From Escherichia phage vb_EcoM_bov9_1, in sequence record MT884006.2: a stretch of 64,000 nucleotides of DNA. One strand, given 5' to 3'. Shown one piece after another: positions 3-32,716 of this stretch (positions are counted from its first letter, which is position 1; each line of letters starts with the position of its first letter). Both the position numbers and the translations under genes were made by a program. The notes under the pieces were generated by a model that had not been told where the DNA came from, searched no databases, and was given only the letters and a program-made list of their open reading frames with translations.

Positions 3-1769
3 TTGCAGTACGGAAATGACTTACGAGTTGTTCGTGCTGTTGATAGAGATACCGCTAAAAACTCATCGCCAATTGCTGGTAATATTGAATACACAATTTC
101 TACACCAGGTAGTAACTATGCAGTTGGAGATAAAATCACGGTCAAATATGTTTCAGATGATATTGAAACTGAAGGTAAAATTACCGAAGTAGACGCAGAT
201 GGAAAAATTAAGAAAATTAATATTCCTACTGCAAAAATTATCGCTAAAGCGAAAGAAGTCGGTGAATATCCAGCACTAGGTTCTAACTGGACTGCAGAAA
301 TTTCTTCGTCTTCCTCTGGTTTAGCTGCAGTAATAACTCTTGGAAAAATTATTACTGATTCTGGTATTTTATTAGCTGAAATTGAAAATGCTGAAGCTGC
401 TATGACAGCTGTTGACTTTCAAGCAAGTCTCGAAAAATATGGAATTCCAGGAGTAGTAGCTCTTTATCCAGGCGAATTAGGCGATAAAATTGAAATTGAA
501 ATCGTATCTAAAGCTGACTATGCAAAAGGAGCTTCTGCATTACTCCCAATTTATCCAGGTGGTGGTACTCGTGCATCTACTGCCAAAGCAGTGTTTGGAT
601 ATGGGCCGCAGACTGACTCACAGTACGCTATTATAGTTCGTCGAAATGATGCTATTGTTCAAAGCGTTGTTCTTTCAACTAAGCGTGGTGAAAAAGATAT
701 TTACGATAGTAACATCTATATCGATGACTTTTTCGCAAAAGGCGGCTCAGAATATATTTTTGCAACTGCACAAAACTGGCCAGAAGGCTTCTCTGGAATT
801 TTAACTCTGTCTGGTGGATTATCATCAAATGCTGAAGTAACAGCAGGAGATTTGATGGAAGCTTGGGACTTCTTTGCTGACCGTGAATCTGTTGATGTTC
901 AACTGTTTATTGCGGGTTCTTGTGCCGGTGAATCTTTGGAAACAGCATCTACTGTCCAAAAACACGTCGTTTCAATTGGTGATGCTCGCCAGGATTGCTT
1001 AGTATTGTGCTCACCACCGCGTGAAACTGTAGTTGGAATTCCTGTAACCCGTGCTGTTGACAACTTAGTCAATTGGAGAACTGCCGCAGGTTCATATACT
1101 GATAATAACTTTAATATTAGTTCAACCTACGCAGCAATTGATGGTAACTACAAATATCAGTATGACAAATATAATGATGTGAATCGTTGGGTTCCATTAG
1201 CAGCTGATATTGCTGGTTTATGCGCAAGAACTGATAACGTATCTCAGACTTGGATGTCACCAGCTGGTTATAATCGTGGCCAGATTCTTAACGTTATTAA
1301 ACTTGCTATTGAAACTCGCCAGGCACAACGTGACCGCTTATATCAAGAAGCTATCAACCCAGTAACTGGTACAGGTGGTGATGGTTACGTATTGTATGGT
1401 GATAAAACAGCTACTTCTGTTCCTTCTCCATTTGATCGTATTAACGTTCGTCGTCTGTTTAATATGTTGAAAACGAATATCGGACGTAGTTCAAAATATC
1501 GTTTGTTTGAATTAAACAACGCGTTTACTCGTTCTTCATTCCGTACAGAAACTGCTCAGTACTTGCAAGGAATTAAAGCTCTCGGTGGAATTTATGAATA
1601 TCGTGTAGTTTGCGATACAACAAATAACACTCCGTCAGTAATTGATAGAAATGAGTTTGTTGCAACATTCTACATCCAACCGGCGCGCAGTATAAATTAT
1701 ATCCAGCTTAACTTCGTTGCGACTGCTACTGGTGCAGATTTCGATGAGTTAACTGGTCTTGCTGGTTAA
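3..1769 (+). CDS. 18: Tail sheath protein gp18, C-terminal 588 aa (5' end lies outside window)
   Basis: ORF runs to window edge; sequence recognised as T4-type contractile sheath; position immediately upstream of tail tube gene 19. Confidence 0.9.
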   Translation: MQYGNDLRVVRAVDRDTAKNSSPIAGNIEYTISTPGSNYAVGDKITVKYVSDDIETEGKITEVDADGKIKKINIPTAKIIAKAKEVGEYPALGSNWTAEISSSSSGLAAVITLGKIITDSGILLAEIENAEAAMTAVDFQASLEKYGIPGVVALYPGELGDKIEIEIVSKADYAKGASALLPIYPGGGTRASTAKAVFGYGPQTDSQYAIIVRRNDAIVQSVVLSTKRGEKDIYDSNIYIDDFFAKGGSEYIFATAQNWPEGFSGILTLSGGLSSNAEVTAGDLMEAWDFFADRESVDVQLFIAGSCAGESLETASTVQKHVVSIGDARQDCLVLCSPPRETVVGIPVTRAVDNLVNWRTAAGSYTDNNFNISSTYAAIDGNYKYQYDKYNDVNRWVPLAADIAGLCARTDNVSQTWMSPAGYNRGQILNVIKLAIETRQAQRDRLYQEAINPVTGTGGDGYVLYGDKTATSVPSPFDRINVRRLFNMLKTNIGRSSKYRLFELNNAFTRSSFRTETAQYLQGIKALGGIYEYRVVCDTTNNTPSVIDRNEFVATFYIQPARSINYIQLNFVATATGADFDELTGLAG

Positions 1770-31992: not shown

Positions 31993-32022
31993 AACTTTAT
32001 GCAATCTTTGGAAAATAAAAAA

Positions 32023-32040
32023 GGACTCCCGAAGGAGTCC
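32023..32040 (-). terminator. Rho-independent terminator after small basic protein gene
   Basis: GGACTCC-CGAA-GGAGTCC followed on minus strand by TTTTTTATTTT. Confidence 0.6.
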
Positions 32041-32045
32041 TCAAC

Positions 32046-32264
32046 TTATGCTTTCTGCTTACCAAAACGAGAAGCATCATCTCGAAGAACCGCACGTGCT
32101 CGGCGCATGATCTTCTCAACAGTTTGATTGATACGAGAGTTCGACCCACGCTTGTAGCCAGCGCGTTTAGAATCACCAACTTTCTTTTCAACTGCTTTCT
32201 TTGCTTTAGCTTGTTTTGCCATTATAAATTCTCTTTTAAATGAAAATGCAGGACTTATTGGCAT
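32046..32264 (-). CDS. Small highly basic protein (Lys/Arg-rich; 72 aa or 58 aa from second ATG at 32222)
   Basis: Two in-frame ATGs; strong terminator hairpin just downstream of stop. Confidence 0.45.
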   Translation of the reverse strand: MPISPAFSFKREFIMAKQAKAKKAVEKKVGDSKRAGYKRGSNSRINQTVEKIMRRARAVLRDDASRFGKQKA

Positions 32265-32467
32265 TGCCTGCGCAAGCCCTCAAGGGGAACATAGGTTTTT
32301 GGGTATTTAACGACCAGGATAACCATAAACCCGTCATCATTCACATTCAAGAGGTACACCATAAAACTGCCGGGGTCTTAAAACTATAATGATTCGCAAA
32401 TCATTAATCAGACAGTTCGATGGCTCCTCGATTTTAGCTCACACTAAGGCAGTGAATCTCCAATAAA

Positions 32468-32716
32468 TTACTTCAATGTTACCACAAAGTGACGAACTGC
32501 TTTTCGTGCAGCAGAAGCCAGAGGCTTAGCATACTTAAGTTCATCTTTTTCCTGAAGCTCAGCAGCTAATGCAGTTTGAGCAGGATTTAGATGTTTGAAA
32601 TAACGCAGGATTTCAAGAGCTTCGGCTTCAACATCAATAGATGCGCCATAGTTTTCGTGACCATTATTCCATGCGTTTCGTTGCAGTTCAAGAGCGTGTT
32701 GTAATTGTTTAATCAT
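32468..32716 (-). CDS. rIII: Probable rIII lysis-inhibition accessory protein (82 aa)
   Basis: 82 aa equals T4 rIII length; position between 30.x cluster and gene 31; late promoter upstream. Confidence 0.5.
   Translation of the reverse strand: MIKQLQHALELQRNAWNNGHENYGASIDVEAEALEILRYFKHLNPAQTALAAELQEKDELKYAKPLASAARKAVRHFVVTLK

Follow-up and report, generated by a model that had tools for sequence, protein, structure and literature searches.

The spacer between genes rIII and 30.9 of Escherichia phage vb_EcoM_bov9_1 (record MT884006.2; the 64,000-nucleotide stretch analyzed here is called the window) spans 245 bases, 32223-32467. It very probably forms a structured, modular RNA region that includes a homologue of ToxI, an RNA that keeps the endoribonuclease ToxN inactive within the toxin-antitoxin system ToxIN. 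From sequence comparison, we regard it as established that this element, M1, is homologous, as a single diverged copy, to the 36-nt ToxI of that abortive-infection system, since a covariance-model score, exact positional orthology and pairing evidence combine. Our preferred reading, to which we assign a probability of roughly 0.5, is that M1 would be an orphan antitoxin mimic standing among other structured RNAs of unassigned target. Whether its job would be to counter toxins of the ToxN family is a narrower proposal, for which we put the odds at even or a little below. The unit and its parts are as follows.

32431..32463, minus strand: M1, a single ToxI-like pseudoknot unit, UUGGAGAUUCACUGCCUUAGUGUGAGCUAAAAU, directly after rIII and before element M2.
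GG 32461-32460 with CC 32449-32448: stem S1 of M1.
CAC 32454-32452 with GUG 32442-32440, plus U12/U22: stem S2 of M1.
3' tail of M1: AGCUAAAAU, where ToxI has GCUAGAAAU.

When the rIII-30.9 spacer of the Klebsiella phage Kpn6N was compared by blastn with 5,426 E. coli genomes and 72,556 plasmids, the M1 segment alone was matched. The plasmid matches, 5-10 per record, lay on small mobilisable plasmids of Escherichia, Salmonella, Klebsiella, Yersinia, Pectobacterium and Serratia. On pNMEC-O75B they form an array of 5.6 tandem copies of AGGTGATTTGCTACCTTTAAGTGCAGCTAGAAATTC, and the gene that lies immediately downstream is annotated as a type III toxin of the ToxN/AbiQ family; this position indicates that the array is the ToxI antitoxin of a ToxIN system. 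Units of phage ATK47 and locus L058, in the same position as the window M1 (after the rIII stop and before M2), are identical to ToxI at 30-31 of 34 positions (88-91%). The window M1 agrees with ToxI at 25 of 34 positions (74%) and with the ATK47 unit at 26 of 34, and is linked via intermediate sequences such as those of JC221, L064 and teqskov.

We then compared the M1 units with the known ToxI structure. In the crystal structure of E. coli ToxIN, ToxI is an H-type pseudoknot, in which stem S1 consists of four pairs, the two central G-C ones being conserved, stem S2 has four pairs including U12-U22, and G5, A6, A19, A20 and G21 are conserved (PMC8860590); C27 and U28 are the ToxI nucleotides of the ToxN interface (PMC3475682). 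In the ToxI numbering of our own alignment mapping, the window M1 keeps G2-C15, G3-C14, G5, A6, C9-G25, A10-U24, C11-G23, U12/U22, G21, C27 and U28, with S2 complete and S1 reduced to its two central G-C pairs. In a set of 14 distinct sequences of ToxI and M1, 94% of the cells of the ToxI-type pseudoknot are paired, as compared with 18-65% when the pairing partner is slid, and its covariation score was reached by none of 500 shuffles. Three of the six pseudoknot pairs show changes on both sides (UGC/GCA, CGC/GCG, CAC/GUG and AGC/GCU in S2; GGU/ACC and AGU/ACU in S1). Covariance model R1, built from ToxI and phage units other than the T4 type, with no T4-type sequence, found its best match in the whole 64-kb window at M1 (32468-32429; 19.7 bits, E about 0.1; next match, 13.7 bits). 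The same model recovered M1 in 17 of 43 related loci, and reached 35 bits in one locus on which it had not been trained. As a side observation, the T4-type M1 (AUUCACUGCCUUAGUGUGAGCUAAAAU, 32431-32457) presumably shares UUCACUGCC and GCUAA-AA, without the stem, with the repeat of type I-F CRISPR (clustered regularly interspaced short palindromic repeats); at E up to 10, the CRISPR-repeat models of Rfam gave no match in the spacer.

M1 is followed in the window by further candidate RNA elements.

32351..32431, minus strand: M2, a long irregular 25-bp hairpin (GAGG/CCUC, GCCAU/AUGGU, GAACUGUC/GGCAGUUU) that contains GGAG.
32406-32387: apical AU-rich hairpin of M2, with a UGCG loop.
32294..32342, minus strand: E1, an H-type pseudoknot whose stem S1 pairs GACGGG 32335-32330 with CCUG[G]UC 32318-32312.
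Stem S2 of E1: loop GGUU 32324-32321 with AACC 32297-32294, the A-rich linker GUUAAAUACCCAAAA lying between.
32273..32290, minus strand: E2a, a small hairpin, GUUCCCC-UUGA-GGGCUUG, with conserved flanks.
32248..32271, minus strand: E2b, a hairpin, GCAGG-CAAUGCCAAUAAGU-CCUGC.
32229..32246, minus strand: a weak hairpin over the Shine-Dalgarno sequence of 30.9, UUUUC-AUUUAAAA-GAGAA (-1.3 kcal/mol, not significant alone).

Over 11 distinct M2 sequences, 98.9% of the cells are paired and five pairs have changed on both sides. Several invariant G.U pairs, which would be C.A on the other strand, indicate an RNA constraint on the minus (sense) strand. M2 is the sole element with a significant folding energy of its own (-23.4 kcal/mol, z = -3.66), and shorter forms without the apical part occur in teqskov and STML-198. 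In E1, the loop and the distal arm change together, being GGUU/AACC in the window, GUUGGUU/AACCAAC in Kpn6N, UUGUGAG/CUCACAA in CF1, GUAGU/ACUAC in COW86c and GAUGG/CCAUC in L046. A comparison of cognate with non-cognate arm duplexes over 19 phages gave p about 5e-5 for S2 (none of 20,000 permutations was as good) and about 1e-4 for S1; the test ignores phylogeny, so the p values are indicative only.

The E2b stem is entirely different in sequence and yet complementary in other genera (GAACUGG/CCAGUUC, GGGAGC/GCUCCC, GUGGAG/CUCCAC, GGCGA/UCGCC). E2a is found in all genera and is nearly invariant, with a single compensatory variant, GCCU/AGGC (L069, L102), so that support for it is weak; the hairpin over the Shine-Dalgarno sequence is likewise weakly supported, with analogous hairpins in other genera (CUCC..GGAAG; CCUC..GAGG in L069 and L102). 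Two side observations concern this region: an alternative pairing, GGGCUU/AAGUCC, is possible within 32248-32290 and is mutually exclusive with E2a and E2b, and a loop motif, CAAUAAG(U/A)CC, is common to the window E2 and to Gelderlandvirus spacers, whose stem differs. Neither strand gives a significant folding energy for the whole spacer (z = -1.63 and -0.82), and a long-range helix of the whole-spacer fold was rejected, since it is unsupported by ATK47. The evidence for structure in the spacer is comparative rather than thermodynamic.

The pattern of change also bears on two explanations that dispense with RNA structure. It is very improbable that the conserved sequence acts as DNA, that is, as a replication origin, a recombination or packaging signal, or a protein site. 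Conservation is indeed seen at the nucleotide level, and in the GenBank record of ATK47 the 10 bp at L003 1004-1013, shortly before the 30.9 start codon, are labelled 'ori type 2 repeat'; however, the variation obeys RNA pairing rules, including G.U pairs possible on one strand only, no known origin is annotated here in the T4 record, and the homologous plasmid sequence is a well-characterised RNA. That the spacer encodes one or more small peptides, as the sequence-only reading had also proposed, is scarcely credible. Open reading frames (ORFs) of 20-49 aa do occur on both strands, such as the 35-aa ORF at 32255-32362 on the minus strand and a 49-aa ORF on the plus strand, but they change length or sequence or vanish in close relatives, 1-nt indels inside them separate T4, T2 and the window, none has a conserved start with a Shine-Dalgarno sequence, and the substitutions follow base pairing, not codons. 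The other options of that reading, a structured leader or a small RNA, are borne out by M1, M2 and E1, whose pairings are kept by compensatory change across genera and one of which is the ToxI homologue, whereas the antitoxin link and the modular, shuffled architecture had not been foreseen.

We next consider the spacer as a whole. The window is a T4-like (Tequatrovirus) genome, in which the 900 bases around the spacer are 99-100% identical to those of many coliphages, and its spacer is 97.9% identical to that of T4. Every Tevenvirinae genus examined has 190-400 nt between rIII and the 30.9 homologue, with the following lengths.

teqskov: 194 nt
STML-198 (Gelderlandvirus): 204 nt
T4: 244 nt
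RB69 (Mosigvirus): 263 nt
IME281 (Dhakavirus): 263 nt
T2: 288 nt
PEi20 (Kanagawavirus): 291 nt
CF1 (Moonvirus): 305 nt
a distant 175-kb metagenomic phage: 324 nt
Kpn6N (Jiaodavirus): about 340 nt
SP18 (Gaprivervirus): 397 nt

Alignments of these spacers consist of near-invariant blocks, with whole blocks cleanly inserted or deleted between phages. In SP18, rIII and 30.9 have clearly diverged, yet the spacer is 93% identical to that of the window, so the constraint lies on the nucleotides themselves. Across hundreds of genomes the T4-type sequence shows almost no change, even where the flanking genes diverge. Side-by-side reading of at least 50 spacers resolved the blocks into cassettes, including two, D and F, that the window does not have. 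Their order is M1-M2-E1-E2 in the window, M1-M2-F-E1-E2 in T2 and ATK47, M1-M2-D-E1-E2 in SP18, E1-M1-D-E2 in Kpn6N and PEi20, D-E1-E2 in CF1 and E2a-E1-M1-... in L064, and this variation argues for independent units rather than one integrated leader. In Yersinia phage JC221, part of D (D'), M1 and an E2a-like hairpin lie in the uvsY-uvsW region (L030 about 790-900) with no 30.9 adjoining, which indicates that cassettes move within genomes. The spacer, as read from these alignments, is a chain of putative small RNA modules, with gains, losses and changes of order from phage to phage, in which each module keeps its sense-strand pairing through compensatory changes.

These observations bear directly on the possibility that the whole spacer is a cis-acting leader of 30.9, controlling its translation or stability, perhaps with feedback by its basic product gp30.9, which would bind the leader of its own message as in ribosomal-protein operons and T4 gene 32, and that the likeness to ToxI is incidental. 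All T4-like genera examined, even a distant one with a much diverged gp30.9, have a structured spacer of 190-400 nt ahead of the 30.9 homologue; in most genera E2b and the Shine-Dalgarno hairpin adjoin the start codon and cover the Shine-Dalgarno sequence; and gp30.9 is highly basic with a disordered N-terminus, as would fit RNA binding. However, cassettes that are shuffled, lost and gained independently are hard to square with one regulatory fold, the JC221 copies of M1, E2a and part of D have no 30.9 homologue downstream, ToxI units occur in phages without any 30.9, and M1 immediately follows rIII, about 210 nt away from the start codon. We consider such a leader unlikely as an account of the whole spacer, while E2b and the Shine-Dalgarno hairpin probably also set the translation of 30.9.

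The ToxI units of other phages bear on the preferred reading of M1 as an antitoxin mimic. A three-repeat ToxI query returned 242 phage records with near-perfect single or double units, in T4-like and unrelated phages, the units of the unrelated phages being 97-98% identical. Three settings are listed here; their loci are, taken jointly, L100 707-745, L098 708-780 and L099 708-790.

Erwinia phage IT22: one unit, between tRNA-Ser and tRNA-Glu.
T5-like Klebsiella phage pzk-kv23: two units in tandem among tRNA genes.
Coliphage Bas88: one unit, directly before an intrinsic terminator.

Positions within tRNA clusters or before a terminator would be contexts that release a small RNA. Two units were seen in the T5-like pzk-kv23 only, as against one M1-type unit per T4-like genome, where the matched spans are 30-40 nt. 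Further records with ToxI units were those of Salmonella phages 7-11 and Kenya-K36, Escherichia phage FH3, Salinivibrio phage CW02 and Vibrio phage JSF10.

The Pectobacterium phage PhiTE offers a precedent. The wild type carries a pseudo-ToxI of 1.5 repeats with no whole unit, and expansion to 4.5-5.5 repeats was needed for escape from ToxIN; PhiTE also captured ToxI by recombination (PMC3475682). Its pseudo-ToxI differs from ToxI by a U9C/A25G compensatory pair, by a UU/UUU length difference in loop 2 and by an extra 3' A (PMC3475682), and all three types of difference are also present among the T4-like M1 units.

If M1 is an antitoxin mimic, the spacer would be transcribed together with its flanking genes on the minus strand as a cassette array of independent small RNAs, from which M1 would be expressed and processed, would fold into the ToxI-type H-type pseudoknot and would present its AGCUA-AAAU tail to a ToxN-family ribonuclease (RNase). 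Once the shut-off of host transcription has depleted the host ToxI, M1 may bind or occupy ToxN, which would blunt abortive infection to the presumed benefit of the phage. M2, E1 and E2, and D and F in relatives, may act comparably on other targets.

Several results weigh against this. Plasmid-borne E. coli toxIN strongly restricts T2, T4 and T6 (PMC9391042), all of which carry the T4-type M1, and hence the T4-type copy alone does not neutralise E. coli ToxN at high dose. The escape of T4 from toxIN proceeds by amplification of the protein gene tifA, and RB69 is the phage least restricted by toxIN (PMC9391042). The RB69 spacer has no M1 at all, so M1 was rejected as the cause of its lower sensitivity. 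The window M1 is also the most diverged form; it lacks two of the four S1 pairs (A4.G13, U1.U16) and retains one of the two A-minor adenines (A19/A20), its folding energy is unremarkable (z = -0.1), and its model score is marginal alone (E about 0.1). ToxN cleaves at AA^AU, and at GAA^AU in E. coli. The 3' side of the window M1 reads CUAAAAU, containing AAAU without the G, so that its tail is UAAAAU and not the GAAAU favoured by E. coli ToxN, and its 5' side, UAAUUUAUU, has no AAAU site; L046 has AAAU-type cleavage sites on both sides of the unit. M1 is present in single copy, while bona fide antitoxins have at least 1.9 repeats, and a single cloned repeat of the PhiTE pseudo-ToxI gave no rescue from over-expressed ToxN (PMC3475682). 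Finally, searches of bacterial sequences found neither a ToxI array that matches the T4-type variant nor a counterpart of M2, E1, E2 or D; both are weak negatives, as the searches needed near-exact matches.

ToxI-ToxN pairs are selective. The window M1 may act only at low toxin dose, or fit a different ToxN, or have another role, or else be decaying; the last is hard to reconcile with the compensatory evolution and with a T4-type sequence that scarcely varies. Decay is central to another explanation, in which M1 is a relic of recombination with a toxIN plasmid and the other hairpins are ordinary mRNA furniture with no anti-defence role, such as a 3'-end stabiliser of rIII, a site of processing by RNase III or RNase E (M2) or a partial terminator. 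The T4-type copy is indeed the most diverged and fails to protect T4 from plasmid toxIN, PhiTE provides the precedent of capture by recombination, and the 25-bp irregular duplex of M2, the only element with significant folding energy, is of the RNase III substrate type. RNase III cuts such irregular duplexes, as in the processing sites of T7 early mRNA. A relic, however, should gain unpaired changes, whereas in at least eight genera the changes in both pseudoknot stems are compensatory, with most of the tertiary nucleotides kept, the T4-type sequence hardly varies among hundreds of genomes, the SP18 spacer has remained 93% identical despite more diverged rIII and 30.9, and E1 also keeps two stems by covariation. 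We therefore consider the relic explanation improbable, though less so than those invoking DNA signals or peptides.

Going beyond M1 as a mimic, the whole spacer could be an 'RNA anti-defence island', a hot spot that collects and exchanges decoy RNAs for different host immune nucleases, although we hold this wider proposal to be doubtful. M1 would then act against ToxN, E1 (a pseudoknot of ~50 nt with an A-rich linker) against a TenpIN-like or new type III system and the ~135-nt module D against a further RNA-dependent system, while gp30.9, always encoded directly downstream, could serve as a chaperone or co-factor of the decoys.

The modules that the window lacks were characterized in relatives. 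Module D, a GC-rich structured RNA of ~135 nt, was found between rIII and 30.9 in 404 phage records, most copies being 94-100% identical from one genus to another; its carriers are phages of Klebsiella, Enterobacter, Citrobacter, Edwardsiella, Serratia and Erwinia, and some coliphages. Compensatory changes are seen in its four helices, and its GNRA-type tetraloop varies (GAAA, UAAA, GCAA, GUAA). Module F is a cassette of ~50 nt between M2 and E1 in T2, ATK47, RB69 and Dhakavirus phages; related pseudoknot-like elements (ACGG..CUCUAUG..CCGU..CAUAGAG) lie near 30.9 in other genera. An extra small hairpin cassette, also absent from the window, stands directly upstream of E1.

L025 564-700 (plus strand), L005 about 729-865 (minus), L021 about 608-744 (plus) and L102 about 1188-1325 (plus): module D.
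L006 about 700-760 (minus strand), L003 and L038: module F, with inner stem CAGA/UCUG, or CAGC/GCUG in L038.
L021 about 493-525 and L102 about 1333-1363: hairpin cassette ACGCCCACC(A/G)UGUGUACGCAUGGGUAACG, following the rIII stop (Klebsiella phages) or module D (the distant phage L102).

Module D had no Rfam match, and its invariant 20-mer was absent from the genomes of 185,579 bacterial and archaeal species. A likeness of D to helix 27 of 16S rRNA was rejected, since blastn of a D-containing spacer against the 5,426 E. coli genomes gave no rRNA match, and D and the window modules were rejected as relatives of the T4 stable RNAs C and D because the similarity did not exceed that of shuffles.

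Other identities were sought for the spacer itself. Rfam 15 scans of the window spacer and the spacers of five relatives, at E up to 10, gave no credible family: an Atu_C8 match (31 bits, gathering threshold 50) was merely the terminator of 30.9, a DUF2815-RNA match in the spacer reached 14.5 bits against a gathering threshold of 41.2, a CRISPR-DR6 match was below threshold, and a match to a microRNA model was not credible. ARAGORN found no tRNA or transfer-messenger RNA in the spacer. The window spacer had no match in the E. coli genomes and single chance-level matches only in the plasmids, and an 18-mer of E1 gave 25 scattered singletons in unrelated taxa, about the number expected by chance.

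The genes that flank the spacer, and the terminator, are listed below.

32468..32716, minus strand: rIII, 82 aa, the gene upstream of the spacer, with its stop TAA at 32470-32468.
32046..32222, minus strand: gene 30.9, 58 aa, pI (isoelectric point) 11.4, read from MAKQ, with the invariant core SKRAGYKR..N.R(I/V)..RAR.
32012..32042, minus strand: intrinsic terminator, a 9-bp stem GAGGACUCC-UUCG-GGAGUCCUU followed by a U-run.

In the annotation of the T4 reference, the minus-strand order is 31, rIII, 30.9 and 30.8 with a gap of 244 nt between rIII and 30.9. This gap is the largest locally, the others being 110 nt (30.8/30.9), 147 nt (rIII/31) and 0-68 nt in the rest of the T4 30.x cluster, which agrees with the remark of the sequence-only reading that such emptiness is unusual in a dense genome. 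Its claim of an ORF-free stretch of more than 200 nt holds for 32223-32467, where the ORFs on both strands are at most 49 aa long and none is conserved. The G+C content of the spacer is 40-45%, as compared with ~30% in the neighbouring spacers, and is unlike the usual AT-rich intergenic DNA of T4. The strong terminator noted after the small gene is the UUCG-loop stem with its U-run at 32042-32012, and it closes the transcription unit rIII-spacer-30.9. For the gene itself, a product of 58-72 aa had been proposed; the 58-aa MAKQ start with its Shine-Dalgarno sequence is kept in relatives, while the 72-aa extension to 32264 is not conserved.

That the product is very basic was confirmed, gp30.9 having 19 Lys/Arg among its 58 residues and a mass of 6.5 kDa. 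It has no Pfam domain, falls in PHROG 1427 (unknown function) and has no relative in a sequence search of the PDB, with nothing below E = 0.15. In a search of 5.8 billion proteins, its homologues were confined to T4-like phages. An exhaustive profile search of 1.84 billion representatives gave 16 matches, 15 of which are small basic proteins with a common SKRAGYKR-x-SN-x-R(I/V). P0071, a 617-aa low-complexity repeat protein, was taken as a spurious profile match. P0074, the sole match whose contig was examined, has rIII/30.8 synteny in a distant T4-like phage. AlphaFold predicts a disordered basic N-terminal half and a single helix at residues 29-53 (mean predicted local distance difference test score, pLDDT, 68). 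RNA binding by gp30.9 is plausible from its composition alone; the sequence-only reading had suggested a nucleic-acid-binding or histone-like protein. It was rejected as a relative of TifA (no sequence similarity) and of ToxN (hhalign probability 0.1%). Many GenBank phage records label it '1,4-alpha-glucan (glycogen) branching enzyme, GH-13-type', and its UniProt entry is a 97-aa '11.1 kDa protein'; both look like annotation artefacts for this 58-aa protein.

T4 and ToxIN are the model pair for toxin-antitoxin abortion of phage infection, and the escape of T4 has been ascribed to the protein TifA. The literature searched contained neither a description of a conserved ToxI homologue in a T4-type genome nor any reference to a ToxI-like element, whether in the rIII-30.9 spacer or anywhere in T4-like phages, although an earlier description elsewhere is conceivable; a 2017 paper gave PhiTE as then the sole phage whose ToxIN escape was understood. 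If M1 is indeed an antitoxin mimic, mimicry of type III antitoxin RNAs, for which escape mutants of a single Pectobacterium phage in the laboratory are so far the only example, would be widespread and natural. Compared with known phage antitoxin mimicry, what would be new is a complete single unit, kept across many genera, among unexplained RNA cassettes and in the best-studied phage genome. M1 variants with different compensatory stems may match different ToxN specificities, and at least three further conserved RNAs (M2, E1, and D in relatives) are offered as testable objects, with gp30.9 always encoded beside them. If the island proposal is true, the unexplained cassettes could be used as probes for new RNA-antitoxin defence systems.

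Among known systems, the closest is ToxI itself, as known from ToxIN of Pectobacterium atrosepticum pECA1039 and of E. coli plasmids. Like ToxI, M1 is predicted to be an H-type pseudoknot with compensatory changes, the window copy keeps G5, A6, U12, G21, U22, C27 and U28, and its A-rich 3' tail resembles the ToxN cleavage site. The known loci, however, have tandem arrays of 1.9-5.6 copies (PMC3401426), whereas the window has a single unit; toxN lies directly downstream in ToxIN, while the unrelated 30.9 follows the M1 spacer; and M1 resides in a lytic phage. The pseudo-ToxI of PhiTE is likewise a ToxI-like sequence in a phage intergenic region, with the same kinds of change, but it is an incomplete 1.5 repeats, as against one complete M1 unit placed among other RNA cassettes and kept across many genera, and suppression was demonstrated for PhiTE, while M1 is known here from its sequence.

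Two other phage counter-measures follow a related logic. RNA anti-CRISPRs are solitary CRISPR-repeat units in phages that act as decoys; like M1 on the preferred reading, they are single phage copies of the RNA partner of a defence protein, directed at a different defence system. TifA (T4 gene 61.4), the protein inhibitor of ToxN, is the counter-measure of the T4 family to the same host system and is a small basic RNA-binding protein; it differs in being a protein rather than an RNA and in being encoded elsewhere in the genome. Structured autoregulatory leaders, finally, are known from ribosomal-protein operons and from the pseudoknot of T4 gene 32. They resemble the rIII-30.9 spacer in that a pseudoknot-containing leader precedes a gene for a small basic or nucleic-acid-binding protein, but they are single integrated operators, whereas the spacer consists of reshuffled cassettes, some of which lie away from 30.9.

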